Below, piece after piece: positions 1,323-19,408 of a DNA stretch of 24,874 nt. The notes under the pieces are model-generated. The model did no database searches, had not been told where the DNA came from, and worked only from the letters and a program-made list of their open reading frames with translations. The stretch spans positions 1-24,874 of IMG/VR virus record IMGVR_UViG_3300011335_000877, one strand, 5' to 3'. Source of the DNA: a virus. Lineage: Duplodnaviria > Caudoviricetes. A program made the translations under genes and the position numbers. Numbering within the stretch: the first letter of the stretch is position 1; the number at the start of each line of letters is the position of its first letter.

Positions 1323-1625
1323 ATGAACAAAAAAGAACGCCAAGCTAAAATTTCAAAAGTAATGAAAGAATTTAAAAGTGGCAAACTAAAGAGCAGCACT
1401 GGTGAGCTAATCAAAAGCCCCCAGCAGGCACTTGCCATTGCCCTTTCTGAAGCTGGCATGACTCGCAAGCCCAAGGAAGGCAAAAGTGACGAATATTACA
1501 TGGGCTTTTTTAAAGAAATGGCAGGGGAGGAAGAAGAGGAGGAAGAAGGCAATATGGATGAAAGCACTGGTGAAAAACGCTGCAAAGCATATTTAAATAC
1601 AGTGCAAAAAAGCAAAAAAAAGTAG
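1323..1625 (+). CDS. Small DUF6496-like protein (100 aa), 0-frame product of a putative -1 frameshift gene
   Basis: KISKVMKEFKSGKLKSS...QALAIALSEA resembles DUF6496; ATG at 1323 just after the upstream stop is preferred to TTG at 1302; ends AAA AAA AAG TAG. Confidence 0.75.
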   Translation: MNKKERQAKISKVMKEFKSGKLKSSTGELIKSPQQALAIALSEAGMTRKPKEGKSDEYYMGFFKEMAGEEEEEEEGNMDESTGEKRCKAYLNTVQKSKKK

Positions 1626-1671
1626 TTAGGGGCGATGTTCAATCCTTCGTCCCTCCGTCGCCCGTAAGGGA
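1616..1671 (+). promoter_or_regulatory. Putative programmed -1 frameshift signal (A AAA AAG plus downstream stem/pseudoknot)
   Basis: In-phase heptamer at 1616-1622; 7-nt spacer; GGGCGATG (1630-1637) pairs with CGTCGCCC (1656-1663); loop TCCCT (1650-1654) is complementary to AGGGA (1667-1671). Confidence 0.7.
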
Positions 1672-1975
1672 AGCAGCGCGTCGTGGTCTAGAACTGCGTA
1701 GGAAATATGGCAAAGGCGGTTTAACAACGCAGGAAGCCGGGAAAGAAGGCATTGGCAGTGGAGTGGCGAGGGCTGGTGATCTAGCTGGTGGTGGTGGTGT
1801 AAGTTTTGCCACTATTAAACGAATGGCAGCATTCTTTTCGCGGCATGAAAAAAATAAAAGTGGCGGTGAAGATGACGCTGGTTACATAGCCTGGCAATTA
1901 TGGGGCGGCGATGCAGGCAGGTCATGGGCGAATCGCATCATTAAGATGGTAGAAAGTCGCAAACCAAAACCATGA
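1622..1975 (+). CDS. Phage head-region domain (AARRGLELR...TIKRM..FF.RH...IAWQLWGGDAG), probably translated as a -1 extension of 1323..1625 (217 aa fusion)
   Basis: Frame is open from 1574 to 1975. Protein-like sequence VVRGDVQSFVPPSPVREAARRGLELRRKYG begins about 140 nt before the first GTG (1763), and the first ATG is at 1823. Confidence 0.72.
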   Translation, partial: VVRGDVQSFVPPSPVREAARRGLELRRKYGKGGLTTQEAGKEGIGSGVARAGDLAGGGGVSFATIKRMAAFFSRHEKNKSGGEDDAGYIAWQLWGGDAGRSWANRIIKMVESRKPKP

Positions 1976-2289
1976 GCGAATTTGTCCGCGTCATCGAAGA
2001 AGAAGATGAAGGCATTGGCACCATGAAGGCGCTGGCTATTCTTTCATGCAATGAACACCGCAATACTTCCCACTGGCGGTTGATCGAAGAACAGCATTTC
2101 AGAAATGGCCGTTTCGATGAAACGCATATTTTTGTCAAGAATTCTTACGATAAGCCTGATGAACAGTTTGAAGAAACCAAGTTTTTGGTTTTTGAAGCTG
2201 AAGCAATAGCAAAGGCATACGTAATGGAAGGCATTGAAAATCAACTGGCTGATTTGCGTGATGATGATGAAGATGAAGATGGTAATTAA
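1972..2289 (+). CDS. Hypothetical acidic phage protein
   Basis: 105-aa ORF with ATGA overlap to the upstream stop; acidic C-terminal tail. Confidence 0.75.
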   Translation: MSEFVRVIEEEDEGIGTMKALAILSCNEHRNTSHWRLIEEQHFRNGRFDETHIFVKNSYDKPDEQFEETKFLVFEAEAIAKAYVMEGIENQLADLRDDDEDEDGN

Positions 2290-2582
2290 CTGCTAATAGC
2301 AGACACCACAAAAGTGGGATAGCCAAGTAGATATAAAATAGAAAGCTGAAAAACAGAGCTAAGCGTACGGATTTGAGCGCAATCAGGAGATATTGCTCCA
2401 CGTTCCATTCGTGAAATAGTAGTTTGATCGCAATGCAAAATCTGCGCTATGTCTTGCTGTGATAAACCGCAATTTAATCGCGCTTCTTTCATGCGTTGAC
2501 CAATGACTTGCCTGCTTTCCTGGATGGTAATATTTGGTGCTTTAAGCCGAGTGGTGAGGCGCCGAAGCTGAATGTGCTGCAT
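2286..2582 (-). CDS. Cro/CI (XRE)-family HTH DNA-binding protein
   Basis: IGQRMKEARLNCGLSQQDIAQILHCDQTTISRMERG...LSSVFQLSILYLLG is a typical HTH_3 pattern; its stop overlaps the convergent gene's stop in TTAA (2286-2289). Confidence 0.9.
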   Translation of the reverse strand: MQHIQLRRLTTRLKAPNITIQESRQVIGQRMKEARLNCGLSQQDIAQILHCDQTTISRMERGAISPDCAQIRTLSSVFQLSILYLLGYPTFVVSAISS

Positions 2583-2637: not shown

Positions 2638-3834
2638 ATGGACATGAGCGACACTTGCTTCCGTTACGATGTAGCGCCGATTGACAAGTATGAACTAACC
2701 CCTGAGGGTTATCTTCGTGCTTGGGCAACCATCGCTCGCACTGGTGTGCAACAGTACACTGATGCAGATGGTTCTATTCGTCGTGAATATCGCCCGGAGT
2801 CAGAAGTGGCGTCTCCTATTAGCTTGGCCTCGTTTGCGGGCAAAGCAATTACTCTTGAACATCCATCAGCTCTTTTAGATAGTTCTAATACAAAGGATTA
2901 TCAAATTGGCTTCACTAGCACTGAAGTGGTTTATGACAACGGCTTTGTTCGTGCAGTTATGACAATCACTGATAAAGATGCTATTGAACGCATTATGCGT
3001 GGTGATGCAAAGGAGGTCAGCGCTGGTTATCGCGTCAATTATGAGGCGATTCCTGGTGTGACTGATAGTGGTGAAAATTACGATGGCATCCAAAAAGATA
3101 TCAGCGGAAATCACATTGCTGTTGTTCGCCGGGGTAGAGCTGGCCCGCAAGTGAAGCTGCATTTAGATCGTCTAGATGCTGCCGACCCTTCTTTATTTAC
3201 TCCCATTGAGGAACCATCTATGACTGCAAAAGTCAATTTTGATGGCGCTGAGTTTGATGTGACTGAGAGCGTAGCGCTAGCGATCACTAAAGAACGAGAT
3301 GACGCCAAAAAAAGCTACGAAGACATGAAGAAAATGTACGATGGCATGATGGCTGAAGCTTCCAAAATGAAGGAAGAAATGGATGCCATGCAAAAGGAAA
3401 TGAAAGGTAAGTGCGATGCTGCCGAAGGGCGGGCCGATGCACTTGCAGAGGAAGTAGAAAGCCTTAAGGCTGATCTTTCCGAAGCACAAAAGGTGAATGT
3501 TGATGGTCTTGTTGAAGAGCGTGTTGCGCTCATTGACAAAGCACGTCCTTCCCTTGATAGTGCTTTTGATTTTACTGGCCTTTCAGCTCGTGAAATCATG
3601 GAAACCTCCATCAAAGCCGTTCGTGGCGATGTTGATTTATCAGCTCGTTCTGATGATTACATCACCGCTATGTTCGACACCTTGGCAGAATCCCCTCGTG
3701 GTGATTCTCCCGCTACGGAAGAACTGCGTAAAGCTGTTGCTTCCATCACTTCTCCAATGTCTGCTCCTTCTTCCTACATGGATAAGTTGCAGAATGCTTG
3801 GAAATCCCCACTCTCCGTCTCTAAGGAGCGCTGA
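2638..3834 (+). CDS. DUF2213-family prohead protease/scaffold protein
   Basis: TPEGYL...IARTGVQQY, YRPESEV, GKAITLEHP, EVSAGY, NHIAVVRRGRAG, then an acidic coiled-coil C-terminal half; lies directly upstream of the decoration and capsid genes. Start could be ATG 2644. Confidence 0.9.
   Translation: MDMSDTCFRYDVAPIDKYELTPEGYLRAWATIARTGVQQYTDADGSIRREYRPESEVASPISLASFAGKAITLEHPSALLDSSNTKDYQIGFTSTEVVYDNGFVRAVMTITDKDAIERIMRGDAKEVSAGYRVNYEAIPGVTDSGENYDGIQKDISGNHIAVVRRGRAGPQVKLHLDRLDAADPSLFTPIEEPSMTAKVNFDGAEFDVTESVALAITKERDDAKKSYEDMKKMYDGMMAEASKMKEEMDAMQKEMKGKCDAAEGRADALAEEVESLKADLSEAQKVNVDGLVEERVALIDKARPSLDSAFDFTGLSAREIMETSIKAVRGDVDLSARSDDYITAMFDTLAESPRGDSPATEELRKAVASITSPMSAPSSYMDKLQNAWKSPLSVSKER
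3220..3834 (+). CDS. Putative nested in-frame scaffold protein (204 aa)
   Basis: GAGGA at 3208-3212 lies 7 nt before the in-frame ATG at 3220, at the boundary between the protease domain and the helical region. Confidence 0.55.
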   Translation: MTAKVNFDGAEFDVTESVALAITKERDDAKKSYEDMKKMYDGMMAEASKMKEEMDAMQKEMKGKCDAAEGRADALAEEVESLKADLSEAQKVNVDGLVEERVALIDKARPSLDSAFDFTGLSAREIMETSIKAVRGDVDLSARSDDYITAMFDTLAESPRGDSPATEELRKAVASITSPMSAPSSYMDKLQNAWKSPLSVSKER

Positions 3835-3837
3835 TCC

Positions 3838-4398
3838 ATGGCCGTAACTTTTACCACGTCGGGGACTGCTTCTGCTGGTGGTGTGCAACAGAGCTATGCT
3901 CTGGCTCAAACTGCTTTGCTGGAAGGTCAACTCTCTGATATTCGCGACAACACCATTGGCACCTACATCAACGAAACAGCAGTTGTACTGCCTTTCGGTA
4001 ATGTGCAGGTGTACAACACTGCTGGCACTGTAGCTAATTCTGCTACCACCATTTCTGGTGCTTCCGATACTGTTCTTGGTATCAATGTTCTCACTTACGT
4101 TGACGAAACCGCACTGAACGCCGATAATCGTCCTGGTGTGAAAGTTGATCAAGTGCTGAATGTTGCTAATGAAGGTGCAGTAGCTGTTTATGTGACTGGT
4201 GCCGTCACTCCTGCTTCCATAGTCCGCGTGTTGTATTCAGCAAGCGGCACTGGCAAGGCTGGTCAATTCAGCCATGCTTTTGCTTCGGGCAAGACTGTTC
4301 GTATGGCCAATGCTCGTTATCTTTCTACTACCACTGGTAGTGGACTGGCGATCTTGGAACTGAACGGCCCAAGCTTTACTCTCTCCGCTGATTCTTGA
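3838..4398 (+). CDS. Capsid decoration/cement protein
   Basis: Position between protease and capsid gene; A/T/G/S/V-rich; LPFG and EGAVAVYVTGAVTP..IVRV motifs; RBS TAAGGAG upstream. Confidence 0.8.
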   Translation: MAVTFTTSGTASAGGVQQSYALAQTALLEGQLSDIRDNTIGTYINETAVVLPFGNVQVYNTAGTVANSATTISGASDTVLGINVLTYVDETALNADNRPGVKVDQVLNVANEGAVAVYVTGAVTPASIVRVLYSASGTGKAGQFSHAFASGKTVRMANARYLSTTTGSGLAILELNGPSFTLSADS

Positions 4399-4413: not shown

Positions 4414-5328
4414 ATGTCTGAATTTCGTATGGACGAAGCGGGTCTGTTTCTTGAGCGTCAGCTTGAGTACATCCGCCCCCAGGTATTTGAAACGGTTTAT
4501 GCCGACATCAAATATCCAACTATTTTGCCTGTAACTAGCGAAGCTGGTCCTGGCGCACAAACCTTCACCTTCCGCATCATGAACTCCACTGGTGAGTTCA
4601 AACTGATTGCAGATGCTGCTGATGATTTGCCCCGTGCAGATATTAGCCAAGTGGAAAAAAGCATCAACATTCGTTCTTTCGGTGGTAGCTTCGGTTATAC
4701 CGTGCAGGAACTACGTGCTGCTCAAATGGCCAACATTGCTCTTGAGCAGCGTCGTGCGCAAGCCGTGCGTCGTGCTTATGAAGAGAAAGTGGAAGCTGTT
4801 GCCATGTTTGGTGAGTCCACTGTTGGTTTGGCTGGTTTCTTCAACAATTCAACTGTTGATGTGATTGCAGCTAACAAATGGTTCACTGGCGCCACTGCTA
4901 GTGGCACTGCTCAAGACATGCTGGAACTATTGAACTATGGCGTTAGTGCCATCATCAATGCTTCCAAAATGAAGGAGCAGCCCGACACTATTCTGTTGGC
5001 TTACGAAGACTACAACGTAGTAAGCACCACTCGTAATTCCGATTCTTCGGACGTTACTGTGCTTGAGTATTTCCTTCGCACCAACCCCTACATCCGTAAT
5101 GTTGAGCCAATCAACCAGTTGGATGCAGACAACAGCGTATTAAATACCAACCGTATGGTGGTATATAAGCGTGATCCAGAGAAAGTGCAACTGCACATTC
5201 CTCAACCCTTGGAACTGTTCCCGCCTCAACAGCGTGGTCTTGAGTTCATTGTTCCTGCTCACGCTCGCGTGGGTGGTGTATCTCTGTACTTCCCCAAGAG
5301 CGTCATCTATGTTCAAGCTTCTGCTTGA
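4414..5328 (+). CDS. Major capsid protein (DUF2184-like, HK97 fold)
   Basis: FLERQLEYI, DDLPRADI, FGYTVQELRAA, ARVGGVSLYFP motifs; strong GGAGG at 4401-4405; 304 aa. Confidence 0.93.
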   Translation: MSEFRMDEAGLFLERQLEYIRPQVFETVYADIKYPTILPVTSEAGPGAQTFTFRIMNSTGEFKLIADAADDLPRADISQVEKSINIRSFGGSFGYTVQELRAAQMANIALEQRRAQAVRRAYEEKVEAVAMFGESTVGLAGFFNNSTVDVIAANKWFTGATASGTAQDMLELLNYGVSAIINASKMKEQPDTILLAYEDYNVVSTTRNSDSSDVTVLEYFLRTNPYIRNVEPINQLDADNSVLNTNRMVVYKRDPEKVQLHIPQPLELFPPQQRGLEFIVPAHARVGGVSLYFPKSVIYVQASA

Positions 5329-8017: not shown

Positions 8018-8246
8018 TTATCTATGGAGCAAGGATGGTCGTGTTCATGCTATTAATTGTTCTTACGTAGGAGCAAGCATTGAAGCTGGAATTCTTTGCC
8101 TTATAGCATTTCCAGAAGAAACCATTAGAATTTCAAACGAAGATCATTCTTTTTTAGTTGAAGTGCCTAAGGAATTTCGTTCTCAAAACGAAAGGGTGAA
8201 AGTCTTCAACGCCACTTTAAACGTTCTCCACCATGAGCAAGTATAG
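8007..8246 (+). CDS. Hypothetical phage protein
   Basis: 79-aa ORF overlapping both neighbours by 11-14 nt. Confidence 0.65.
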   Translation: MQIDYLWSKDGRVHAINCSYVGASIEAGILCLIAFPEETIRISNEDHSFLVEVPKEFRSQNERVKVFNATLNVLHHEQV

Positions 8247-8778
8247 TTTCCTTCTCCAAAGCGAAGAGCCTGAGTTTTTTGAATTAACTCCTAAAATCCG
8301 TTTGCGTAAGCATGGTGGATGGTTAGTAGCTGAAGGTATTGAACAGGAAGAACTAAGCAAGGTTCAAAGCCAAGCAACGATTCGCGCTGTGCAATTAGCA
8401 AAACGCATTGCCACTACAAAAGATATTCCATTAGACGAAGCATTTGCTCTGTTGCAAGGTGGTGCTGATATGACAGAGATGGAACTACTAAGTGATTTCA
8501 CTGAAGAAACACTTGGCATGATCAATAGCAGCGGTAGTGTTGAAACTGGCAATGCTCGCATGGTAACTGCATTCATCCGCTGCAGGGGTGAAGGTTTAAT
8601 TAAAGACGAATGGTTGCCCCTTGATGATTGGTCCATTGAAGACACTAAGGCCATGGGACGGCGCGTGATTGCAAAAGGCATGGAATTTATTGCTAGCGAG
8701 CAAGAAGCTGAGGCGCAAGAAGCAGGACAAGCAAAAAAAGCACCACGCCGGACGAAGGAAGCATCGCCGAACGTTTAG
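8233..8778 (+). CDS. Tail assembly chaperone (gpG-like)
   Basis: Acidic 181-aa protein upstream of the tape measure gene, with slippery GCA AAA AAA near its 3' end. Confidence 0.8.
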   Translation: MSKYSFLLQSEEPEFFELTPKIRLRKHGGWLVAEGIEQEELSKVQSQATIRAVQLAKRIATTKDIPLDEAFALLQGGADMTEMELLSDFTEETLGMINSSGSVETGNARMVTAFIRCRGEGLIKDEWLPLDDWSIEDTKAMGRRVIAKGMEFIASEQEAEAQEAGQAKKAPRRTKEASPNV

Positions 8779-9209
8779 AAAAACAAGCCCGGCAATTTTT
8801 AAAAAACTTAACCAAATGGGACGATATTTATTTTCGTCTTAATGCGTCAGATTTTAATGATTGCCGATGGGAGGCAGATAGCTTTGGCAGGCAAAGAATG
8901 AAAGACGTGATAAAAGCATTGAAATGGTTGGAACAGCATGATATAACACAATATAATATCAATAGTATTTCAACAGCTAAATTAGGCACTGTTGTAGTAG
9001 GGGCATTAGGCGGAAAAAAAGCAAGGGCGTCAGCAGATGATTTCTTGCCATTTGACACAAGGAAGCTGAAAAAACAAGCTGGCATATCAGACGAAAGCCT
9101 AGTGATACTACAGCGTTTAATGAAAACAAGGCGATTGGATGGTAGAGTGATTTCATTATTGGCAAATGAATTAAAAACTGCTTCTTCGCGTGAACAAGGC
9201 AGTGATTAG
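8739..9209 (+). CDS. gpT-like extension reached by -1 frameshift (gpGT fusion 8233..9209, about 325 aa)
   Basis: The -1 frame is open from 8712 to 9209 (STTPDEGSIAERLEKQARQFLKNLTKWDDIYFRL...DFLPF); first ATG only at 8898; A AAA AAA at 8733-8739 lies in the overlap. Confidence 0.8.
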   Translation, partial: STTPDEGSIAERLEKQARQFLKNLTKWDDIYFRLNASDFNDCRWEADSFGRQRMKDVIKALKWLEQHDITQYNINSISTAKLGTVVVGALGGKKARASADDFLPFDTRKLKKQAGISDESLVILQRLMKTRRLDGRVISLLANELKTASSREQGSD

Positions 9210-16680: not shown

Positions 16681-17273
16681 TTAAAGTGAAACTGCTAGGG
16701 GAGCTGGGGCGACAATTTGGCCGCAGCTATGAATTCATGGCTAATTCGCCTAAGGATGTAATGTCAGCATTGTGTAATCAATTGGATGGATTTAAGCAAT
16801 ACATGGCGGATGCGCATGAACATGGCATTGGTTTCAAGCTTGTAGATGAAGATCCAGATGGTATGGATTATGCCAATGTGTTAATGGGCTGTAGACGACT
16901 TGTAATTGCACCAGTCATTAGTGGTGGTGGCACTGTAGGGCGAATTTTAGTTGGCGTGGCATTAATTGCATTAGCTTTTGTTCCAGTTATTGGTGCTGCT
17001 GCAATTGGTACTTTTGGTGCAACGCCAATTGGTGTAGGAAGTTTATTGTTTAGCTTTGGTACGGGCATGGTTTTAACTGGTATTGCATCATTACTTACGC
17101 CACCAGTGGAAGCGCCAAAAGGAGATGCAGAACGTAAAGATAGTTTTTTGTTTGATCGCGCTGCAGAATTAACTTCACAAGGGGCACCAATACCTTTACT
17201 TTATGGTAGATTTCTTGCTCAAAGCCCTTTAATTATTAGTTCATCACTTTCCACTCAACAAGTGGCAGCGTAA
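16671..17273 (+). CDS. Tail assembly protein, lambda gpI-like
   Basis: VKLLGELGRQFGR, APVISG, hydrophobic middle, SFLF...QGAPIPLLYGR. Confidence 0.93.
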   Translation: MQLIKVKLLGELGRQFGRSYEFMANSPKDVMSALCNQLDGFKQYMADAHEHGIGFKLVDEDPDGMDYANVLMGCRRLVIAPVISGGGTVGRILVGVALIALAFVPVIGAAAIGTFGATPIGVGSLLFSFGTGMVLTGIASLLTPPVEAPKGDAERKDSFLFDRAAELTSQGAPIPLLYGRFLAQSPLIISSSLSTQQVAA

Positions 17274-19408
17274 TGACTTTACCTACCATGGAATTAGACG
17301 ACGATATTATTTATAGTGGTGCGGGCGGAGGAAAAGGCGGCGGGGGCGGCGGGGGCGGGGGCGGCAAGGGCAAGGGAGGCAGCAATCCACGCAAGCCGGA
17401 AGAAGATCCTGAATCATTAAGAAGCCGATCAGAAGCTAGTTTTGTTGCAGTATTGTCTGAAGGTGAAGTACAAGGTTTTGAAGATGGGGTGGATCCACTC
17501 ACTCGTATTTTTTTAGATGGTGTACCACTAAGAAATAGAGACGGCAGTTCTAATTTTTCAATTGCTGCATTTTTTACGGGCTCTCCTTCAACAGCGCAAG
17601 GCAAAGGAAGCTTAATTTCCGCTATTTCTAGCTCAATACCAGGATTAGTGCGCACTGAAACCAATACTGGTGTAAATACTATTGTTGCTGATTATCGCGT
17701 GGGGGTACAAAACCAAGATCCCATGCCCGGTTTTGACGATGTAAGAGCAGAACAAGGTGTAAATATTAAATTAACAAGAGCAGCCGGTCGCGTTTTTAGG
17801 GTTACTACCAGCAGTATATTTAATCGAATACGAGTGAGAATAGGCATTGGATCTTTATTTTATGTTAATAACAGCAATGGCGACGTCAAAGGGGGCTTTG
17901 TAAGTTTTAATATTCAAATTCAATCTGATAATGGCTCAGTAATTGTAAATGACAACAAAGTAATTGGCGGTAAATCTAGGGGGCCAGTGGAATTTGAATA
18001 CGAGTATTCATTGTCTGGCAATGGACCATGGGTGGTAAGTGTTGAAAGAACACTAGCAGATCCTACTAGCACCACTGAAAGTAATGATTTATATTTCAAG
18101 GCAATCGTAGGAATTATTAATCAATCATTTCGCTATCCCAACACAGCATTGCTTGGCTTAAAAATTGGAGCTGAAAATTTTTCTGCAGTGCCAACAATAG
18201 GAGCAGATATGTTGGGAATTAAAATTAAAATTCCTCAAAATTATGATCCTATTGCGCGATCTTATGTAGGTGTTTGGAATGGTACATTTAAAACAGAATG
18301 GAGCAATAATCCAGTGTGGGTATTTTATGACTTACTAACAAACACAAGGTATGGAGCGGGGCAATTTATAAATGCGAATCAAGTGGATCGCTATAGTTTG
18401 TATCCAATTGCTCAGTATTGTGATGAATTAGTAAGCGATGGTAAAGGCGGCAAGGAGCCACGTTTTACATTTAATGCTTATATTACAGACCGAGGAGAAG
18501 CTTATAGTGTTTTAAATAGTTTGGCTGCTGCTTTTCGTGGAATGTTGTATTTTAGCGAAGGAACAGTTGTTGCTATTCAAGATCGACCAAAAGCAATTAC
18601 TAAGATATTTTCTCCTGCTAATGTTGTTCAGGAAGTTAATGATAATGGCAATATAACAACACCCCCGTTTGCCTATGAGGGCACAGCACGTAAAGCAAGA
18701 AAAACAGTTGCTTTAGTAAGCTGGAATGATCCTGATGATTCCTATAAAAGCAAGATTGAATATGTAGAAGATGCTGAAGGGCTTGATCGTTATGGTTACC
18801 ATGAAGTAGAAGTAAGGGCTTTTGGTACCACTTCTCAGGGACAAGCGCAAAGAGTGGGAAGGTGGATTTTGCTAACAGATCAATTAGATACAGAAACCGT
18901 TACGTTAAAAACTGGCACGGAAGGATTTTTTTGATGCCAGGGGAGGTTATTGTTATTGCAGATCCGACAAAGGGAGGAAAAGCGCTATGGGGGGAGAATT
19001 ACTGCGGCAACAACAATTGCCGTTACCATTGACTCTCCATTTATTCTGCTGAGCGGCAAATCCTACACACTTACTGTAATGCTTCCTAATGGTTCCTTAG
19101 AGAGCCGTACAGTGCTTAATAGCCCTGGCACCACTTCTGTACTTAGTATCAACCCGGCTTTATCTGAGGCGCCCATACAAGGCGCTCCTTGGGTGCTGCA
19201 GGAAGACGCCGATGGTATAAGAAAATTTCGCGTAATTTCAATTAACGAAGACGATGGACGAATGACAGTAATTGCTTCTCTTTATAATGAAGAAAAATTT
19301 ACTATTGCCGATAGCCCTCAACTAAGCTCCAAGCGTGTTTCACTCTCTAGACTGCAAACAATACCACTTGTATCACAACGCAGTATTATTCTTGGGACGG
19401 TACAGTAA
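17273..19408 (+). CDS. Central tail tip protein, lambda gpJ-like, interrupted as sequenced at 18926-18981 (about 711 aa if repaired)
   Basis: SEGEVQG, YPNTA, WNGTFK..WSNNPVW.FYDLLTNTRYGAG, YCDELV.DG.GG.EPRF, TSQGQAQRVGRW. ORFs 17273..18934 and 18950..19408 share a frame, while the expected LMPGEVIVIADP motif lies in the -1 frame. Confidence 0.88.

Follow-up and report, generated by a model that had tools for sequence, protein, structure and literature searches.

A predicted -1 ribosomal frameshift adds a conserved all-helical domain to a DUF6496 protein in the head region of S-CBS4-like phages

The window, the whole 24,874-nucleotide stretch of freshwater-virus DNA analysed here (IMG/VR record IMGVR_UViG_3300011335_000877), carries two overlapping reading frames, ORF A and ORF B, upstream of head maturation protease, cement, and capsid genes (Table 1). 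ORF A ends in A AAA AAG TAG with the heptamer in phase at 1616-1622, as a sequence-only reading of this DNA had stated and the window letters bear out. The -1 frame stays open over 1574-1975, again as that reading had it, and a shift at the heptamer would append 117 residues, giving the predicted 100-aa protein and 217-aa fusion it had proposed. Its observation that the first ~47 residues of the -1 frame lack a start also holds: the first ATG, GTG, or TTG is a GTG at 1763 (residue 48), with CTG, ATA, and ATT as the only start-like codons ahead of it. Directly 5' of ORF A, positions 64-1320 encode a DegT/DnrJ/EryC1/StrS aminotransferase. Promoter and terminator scans stayed at chance level (3 found vs 3.1; 2 vs 1.4), and an Rfam scan returned four chance-level matches, none close to a gathering score.

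Table 1. Features of the putative frameshift cassette and of the adjoining genes in the window
Feature	Positions	Strand	Description
ORF A	1323..1625	+	100 aa, 11.3 kDa; DUF6496 helical hairpin, K-x-D motif, acidic Glu linker, Lys-rich end
Slippery heptamer A AAA AAG	1616..1622	+	In phase with ORF A (start at 1323)
0-frame stop TAG	1623..1625	+	Immediately 3' of the heptamer
ORF B, -1 frame	1622..1975	+	117 aa appended after the predicted shift; basic all-helical domain, phrog_2859, function unknown; no Pfam/NCBIfam family
R-G-D codons at the start of B	1628..1636	+	Putative head-protease site; overlaps 5' arm of hairpin
Conserved 8-bp hairpin, putatively stimulatory	1628..1654	+	1628-1635 paired with 1647-1654; 11-nt loop; 5-nt spacer
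Earlier-proposed pseudoknot	1630..1671	+	1630-1637/1656-1663 and 1650-1654/1667-1671; complementary here, not conserved
ORF C	1972..2289	+	105 aa, acidic, no family; overlaps B stop; in 233/239 close loci
HTH_3 transcriptional regulator	2286..2582	-	
DUF2213 head maturation protease	2644..3834	+	Scaffold-like tail; 10 [RK]-x-D motifs
Capsid cement protein	3838..4398	+	PF22758
Major capsid protein	4414..5328	+	PF09950; conserved R-x-D at residues 5-7

The DUF6496 likeness of ORF A, already noted in the sequence-only reading, passes the Pfam cut-off (29.3 vs 24 bits), with the domain covering residues 4-44. The model of A, composed of a helical hairpin, a further helix, and a disordered acidic tail, has pLDDT values of 84-89 over residues 1-40 and is disordered beyond residue ~70. 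AlphaFold models B with confidence (pLDDT 90) as seven helices. Both domains are basic, with pI values of 9.9 (A) and 10.4 (B). Apart from phrog_2859, B finds no family in Pfam or NCBIfam and no PDB match by sequence, and its Atlas matches are unnamed clusters only, with DUF6321 as a weak lead. Fold searches with B gave a best Foldseek E of 0.49 and a best VIA Z of 4.5 (rmsd 5.4, 94 residues aligned), which does not in itself prove a new fold. For A, the best VIA match has Z 4.5 (rmsd 4.2, 66 aligned), the viral matches are all uncharacterised proteins, and PDB sequence matches appear at E 1.5 only.

Relatives were collected from viral contigs using B, A, and an alignment of B as queries, and metagenome contigs and genomes were scanned too; each scan comprises its best 80 loci (e.g., the best 80 of 297 or the best 80 of at least 578), which biases the sample toward close relatives. 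In all, 240 loci, the window and S-CBS4 among them, share at least 66% identity with B; without two truncated ones, they yield 157 distinct junctions. The -1 arrangement is present in 140 of these 157 close-relative junctions (best 80 loci per scan), a count that overstates the number of events because related sequences are not independent. The heptamer is A AAA AAG in 97 of the 140, G GGA AAG in 37, and C CCA AAG in 6, whereas U UUA AAG is absent from all 157. XXX AAAG lies at the window's position in 139/157 junctions, and one further junction, a C CCA AAG, has it 3 nt earlier. The XXX letters switch jointly among AAA, GGG, and CCC, and the encoded residues change with them. According to the available part of PMC4066793, these three are the most efficient motifs in E. 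coli, their efficiency being ~0.3% where no stimulator is present and reaching as much as 54% behind an IS3 pseudoknot. Among the 138 shifted junctions whose upstream sequence is long enough (excluding L138 and the extra-A type described below), the stop lies 0, 1, or 5 codons past the heptamer in 13, 121, and 4 cases, respectively. An in-phase XXX AAAG located 0-1 codons ahead of the stop occurs in only 2 of 1125 other ORF ends of the same loci, and the cassette therefore exceeds chance. The other 17 of the 157 junctions are in frame, comprising 16 plain fusions without the heptamer and one type with one extra A. Heptamer, stop, and -1 overlap, three of the four elements whose conservation the sequence-only reading had proposed to check, are thus kept in most close relatives; the fourth, its proposed stem, is not.

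Pairing downstream of the heptamer was assessed in 87 distinct shifted junctions that align without gaps. The hairpin 1628-1635/1647-1654 is paired in 97.4% of cells, a level reached by 0 of 500 shuffles and by no slid control, and its sole strongly covarying pair, 1633:1649, has both sides changed in 43 of 87 sequences, with relatedness of the sequences inflating both the shuffle and the covariation tests. The RNAalifold consensus is this same hairpin minus its outer pair, and the alignment of shifted junctions contains no other conserved helix of at least 5 bp within 110 nt. Pair probabilities in the window are 0.84-0.99 for the hairpin versus 0.014 for stem 1 of the proposed pseudoknot. At least seven of the eight hairpin pairs are kept in 137/138 shifted loci versus 9/16 fusions, and AGG encodes the Arg in 83/86 shifted loci versus 2/10 fusions. 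Mean folding energy is -15.9 kcal/mol in 86 shifted loci versus -8.5 kcal/mol for synonymous recodings, and -7.4 versus -6.6 kcal/mol in 10 fusions. As judged by comparison of sequences, the conserved putative stimulator is a simple hairpin in another register than the proposed stem, weakened in fusions. The window has no upstream SD-like element. The mean anti-SD duplex is -6.3 kcal/mol in shifted versus -2.6 kcal/mol in fused loci, but it also reaches -5.1 kcal/mol further upstream, in Glu/Asp-rich codons.

The H-type pseudoknot of the sequence-only reading exists in the window as two complementarities but is not conserved, with 60.7% of cells paired and 380 of 500 shuffles equalling it; its stems 1 and 2 are paired in 67% and 51% of cells, respectively, which is shuffle level. 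That frameshifting is real and yet stimulated by this pseudoknot in this particular genome is improbable. Stem 1 is slightly more stable than the hairpin in isolation (-13.1 vs -12.1 kcal/mol) and ViennaRNA folding cannot score pseudoknots, but in context stem 1 scarcely forms, and it and the conserved hairpin are mutually exclusive. A 3-nt loop spanning an 8-bp stem is, moreover, sterically poor.

Even less probable is that B is a gene of its own, initiated at a non-ATG codon or through re-initiation once A has terminated, with the heptamer serving merely as Lys-Lys codons. Two genes are what gene callers and the S-CBS4 record give. A search of the -1 frame 5' of the PP motif of domain B found a TTG, GTG, or ATG in 50/138 shifted relatives (mostly TTG; ATG as the sole start in 1/138), some of which could initiate B separately, and an ATG lies within 35 codons of the domain start in 129/143 distant B loci. 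However, the window and 88/138 shifted relatives have none of these codons before the conserved N-terminus of B, and initiation at 1763 would lose the first two of the seven predicted helices. Separate genes also leave unexplained both the AAA/GGG/CCC triplet switching and the weakening of the hairpin in fusions. Slippage of RNA polymerase, rather than of the ribosome, on the A run would likewise produce the fusion, and the window's run is A8; stretches of 9 A or T let the polymerase slip efficiently, as stated in the available part of PMC5009743. Yet no run of about 9 A or T is conserved, the A run measuring 3, 6, 7, and 8 in 41, 83, 5, and 9 of 138 shifted relatives (only A3 in those 41), and the hairpin spacing suits a ribosome, leaving polymerase slippage a very slim prospect. 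An assembly error or a newly broken gene whose true form is one continuous ORF has a negligible chance of being correct: a homopolymer does lie at the site and one junction type (L002, L118, L322) carries an extra A, in frame and with the hairpin kept, but contigs of three public runs (X1, X2, and X5; contigs, not the raw reads that the sequence-only reading had wished to map, two of them being diverged strains that differ at 14 and 13 other positions, and X2 possibly being the source sample) cross the A8 run with 0 gaps, and the offset is common to 140/157 distinct junctions, S-CBS4 among them. The listed runs that hold the sequence include no RNA run. Programmed -1 ribosomal frameshifting, as the sequence-only reading had suggested, very probably yields the 100-aa protein and the 217-aa fusion of the window, a prediction from sequence that the comparison of relatives strongly supports.

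The cultured Synechococcus phage S-CBS4 (HQ698895) possesses an orthologous pair, gp018/gp019, with 75% identity in B and the same heptamer, hairpin, and gene order. Its record lists two hypothetical genes, places the gp019 start inside the domain, and notes no frameshift. At the position of the window's aminotransferase, S-CBS4 has glycosyltransferase, methyltransferase, and HNH genes. Going by S-CBS4 only, the host of the window phage is probably a cyanobacterium. No cyanobacterial prophage with the cassette is present among the 80 genome loci listed, and the three close matches in that list come from contigs binned into MAGs of unrelated taxa.

In a midpoint-rooted tree of 160 rows, built from the DNA that encodes B past the cassette, the fused state has to change ten times, at least six of these changes being forced by well-supported branches, and the type of heptamer switches many times as well. 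Recombination may explain part of this repeated switching. The window's nearest B relatives have a G GGA AAG heptamer and a shorter A, and run X9 contains a contig in which a window-like B follows a different linker, the join lying exactly at the hairpin. In-frame DUF6496-B fusions occur naturally, which makes the fusion protein a natural product; UniProt entry A0A2I7R3X7 matches the models of both A and B. The extra-A in-frame junction of L002, L118, and L322, apparently one lineage, and the proteins P0035 and P0072, which likewise keep the shift-type junction in frame, apparently through one extra A, represent either homopolymer errors or a first step from the shifted to the fused state. B is lost in two loci (L111 and L154) that retain the A/DUF6496 gene, ORF C, and the protease, and the heptamer has decayed in L111. 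The A proteins of L163, L168, and L344 have an additional Cys-containing module at the N-terminus, followed by an RDD motif, and that of L168 has a further module after KMD, in each case upstream of an intact cassette.

Among 143 distant B loci (<66% identity), none has a tblastn match to A and none has XXX AAAG behind a long ORF. The sequence-only reading had counted homologues that are always plain fusions, or that have their own start codon, as evidence against it; close relatives are mostly shifted, but fusions make up 17/157 junctions, and distant homologues carry a start codon themselves or are embedded in long ORFs. Together, the distant loci without the cassette, the fusions, and the losses indicate that the shift is specific to the S-CBS4-like group and dispensable.

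Domain B is distributed over 3490 clusters at 50% identity. Partner domains, scanned in 110 of the best 150 cluster representatives, include XkdF-type proteases, a Mu-like protease, portal, capsid, InPase, 2H phosphoesterases, DdrB-ParB, LPD29, and several DUFs. These fusions recur among predicted viral structures. InPase, 2H, and DdrB-ParB are domains of phage-type polyvalent proteins, which are likely packaged in the head according to the available part of PMC5512222. In named phages, B is found within the prohead protease (HGTV-1), at the start of the major head protein (S-CBS1), or alone (PaBG), and it opens the gene two before the capsid gene in DC31 and Vibrio phage 382E49-1. One distant locus (L221:9-1502) encodes a 498-aa polyprotein without a Pfam match, composed of B followed by modules split by four R-P-G-A-K repeats with a short helical motif, Q-A-V-A-I-A-L, at its end that recalls DUF6496; in 8/143 distant loci, this motif is found at most 1.5 kb from B. 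B also occurs in cellular contigs, including L278:3785-4960 and other loci of Xanthomonas, Rhizobium, Neorhizobium, and Woesearchaeota. The L278 copy (Xanthomonas) has a long Lys/Ala-rich tail, and its surrounding listed ORFs are without obvious phage genes.

Downstream of the cassette, 233, 208, 174, and 112 of 239 close loci reach ORF C, the protease, the cement gene, and the capsid gene, respectively. Translation of ORF C, which overlaps the B stop, may be coupled to the frameshift. The six head-module proteins share an [RK]-x-D motif, which accounts for 19 of their 77 Asp residues versus 22 of 316 in the 22 other window ORFs (Fisher p 3e-5), for a motif picked post hoc, after looking, and with offsets 1, 3, and 4 giving 7, 6, and 13 (offset 4 being somewhat raised, 13/77). 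In the protease, the motif is kept with a free middle residue at 218 in 194/194, 256 in 189/191, 335 in 178/178, and 352 in 170/177 sequences, and at capsid residue 5 it is kept in 112/112. Poorly kept sites are protease 275 (74/185) and cement 102 (28/120), and S-CBS4 gp20 and gp23 have no [RK]-x-D motif. K-x-D behind DUF6496 is kept in 142 of the 148 A proteins scored, R-x-D at the opening of B occurs in 155/157 junctions, fusions included, and the extra modules of some A proteins are bordered by RDD or KMD.

By analogy with T4 gp21 and SPN3US gp245, which cleave internal head proteins (PMC7411985, available part), [RK]-x-D resembles a prohead-protease site and is likely, though putatively, the recognition rule of the DUF2213 protease. 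Whether this protease would cut A and A-B at the motif is, on the same analogy, about an even question. A literature search found no paper on DUF2213 cleavage specificity. In XkdF-fused proteins, B placed before the protease is often flanked, by eye, by K-A, K-S, or K-G instead of R-x-D (L161:1329-2123, L162:4923-5699, P0133, P0137, and P0139), which hints at lineage-specific cleavage sites.

Association of the products with the head is moderately probable. The cassette adjoins the protease, cement, and capsid genes, and B is fused in frame to proteases, portals, and capsids elsewhere, which both speak against the reading that the products are DNA-binding proteins acting in the infected cell and not head components. 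That reading, which we consider unlikely although worth keeping in view, draws on the basic character of both domains, on PaBG gp148 (B alone), a "putative DNA-binding protein" among replication genes, and on the Lys/Ala-rich tail of the Xanthomonas copy. Counter to a head role, B stands outside any head module in PaBG and in some bacterial chromosomes.

In the mechanism we propose, the hairpin 5 nt downstream would pause the ribosome at the heptamer, where two Lys-tRNAs would re-pair from AAA AAG to AAA AAA, a tandem slippage known from E. coli work. Non-slipping ribosomes would terminate at TAG and release the 100-aa DUF6496 protein, and slipping ribosomes would produce the 217-aa fusion with domain B from the same message. 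Both products, judged from their context, would be small basic prohead-associated proteins, and the DUF2213 protease would cut them at [RK]-x-D, behind the DUF6496 part and at the R-G-D opening B. The shift would then set the amount of free B loaded relative to DUF6496, below the 1:1 of fused lineages. Extended to the whole group, this becomes a tentative picture, which we hold with less than even confidence, of a dosage dial on a head-cargo polyprotein: a large set of small modules, including DUF6496 and B, would be joined by [RK]-x-D sites for the DUF2213 protease, and lineages would switch repeatedly among DUF6496 alone, DUF6496 plus a fraction of B via frameshifting, and an obligate 1:1 fusion, setting the B copies packed.

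On the frameshift reading, a head-module gene family would join the few phage genes listed as recoded. The phage group concerned is common in freshwater and estuaries, and its cultured member, S-CBS4, allows testing. Present annotation truncates B or invents a start for it. Nature already provides the mutants: the heptamer comes in three forms, the hairpin covaries, and some lineages have plain fusions or have lost B. The locus also points to an unnamed domain with thousands of clusters and to a testable putative cleavage rule for DUF2213 proteases.

The sequence-only reading had placed the gene in a family not known to be recoded, and the literature search agrees, having returned no paper that describes a frameshift in this gene; the S-CBS4 genome paper and the GeneTack/PRFect lists lay outside that search. 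It returned no paper on DUF6496, and papers on an S-CBS4 frameshift or on slippery frameshifts of cyanophages, judged by title and abstract start, include none on this gene. By sequence, the cassette is a candidate of the dnaX/IS3 type, composed of an in-phase X XXA AAG in an ORF overlap, a start-less second ORF, and a 3' structure. It shares with E. coli dnaX and IS911/IS3-family elements the heptamer class (V VVA AAG) and a 3' hairpin a few bases downstream, and with IS3 elements a shift that yields a longer fusion, whereas the shifted product of dnaX is the shorter one. It differs from both in being a phage head-region gene of unrelated sequence with an immediate 0-frame stop and, in the window, without an SD-like element.

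Among annotated shifts of the SEA-PHAGES collection, 2397/2476 are tail chaperones and 79 hypotheticals (PMC10885494, available part), and the only phage genes mentioned in the accessible portion of PMC3711429 are a tail chaperone cluster. Lambda G/GT resembles the present case as a -1 shift in a morphogenesis gene producing a short protein and a C-terminally extended form; G/GT, however, is a tail gene between the tail tube and tape measure genes, and here other proteins are encoded, upstream of the protease, cement, and capsid genes. Identity with the G/GT tail chaperone was rejected on the head-side position and because a separate site fills the G/GT position in the window. That site (8733-8739, within 8233-9209) is a -1 candidate with an in-phase A AAA AAA in a tail chaperone-like ORF, and its -1 frame is open over 8712-9209, in frame with ATG 8898, just before a tape-measure-like ORF. 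Further downstream, ORFs 17273-18934 and 18950-19408, 15 bases apart, look by size and position like one tail-tip protein in two pieces.

Phage A2, a head example with a -1 frameshift in its major head protein gene (PMC5009743, available part), shares with this locus a shift giving a second head-related product, as do Ig-like capsid or tail extensions. Here, the predicted shift affects a gene other than the major capsid gene and would add an all-helical rather than an Ig-like domain; a capsid or tail C-terminal extension was rejected, the major capsid gene lying at 4414-5328 and A being DUF6496. T4 internal proteins, Alt, SPN3US ejection proteins, and polyvalent proteins have in common with A and B small modules for which loading into the prohead and cleavage by its protease are predicted (PMC7411985, available part), and polyvalent proteins also the InPase, 2H phosphoesterase, DdrB-ParB, and LPD29 domains to which B is fused elsewhere (PMC5512222, available part). 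The available text of these two sources makes no mention of domain B or of a frameshift in such genes, and the likeness drawn to these systems concerns predicted packaging and cleavage, with no sequence or fold similarity seen. The mechanism itself is textbook.
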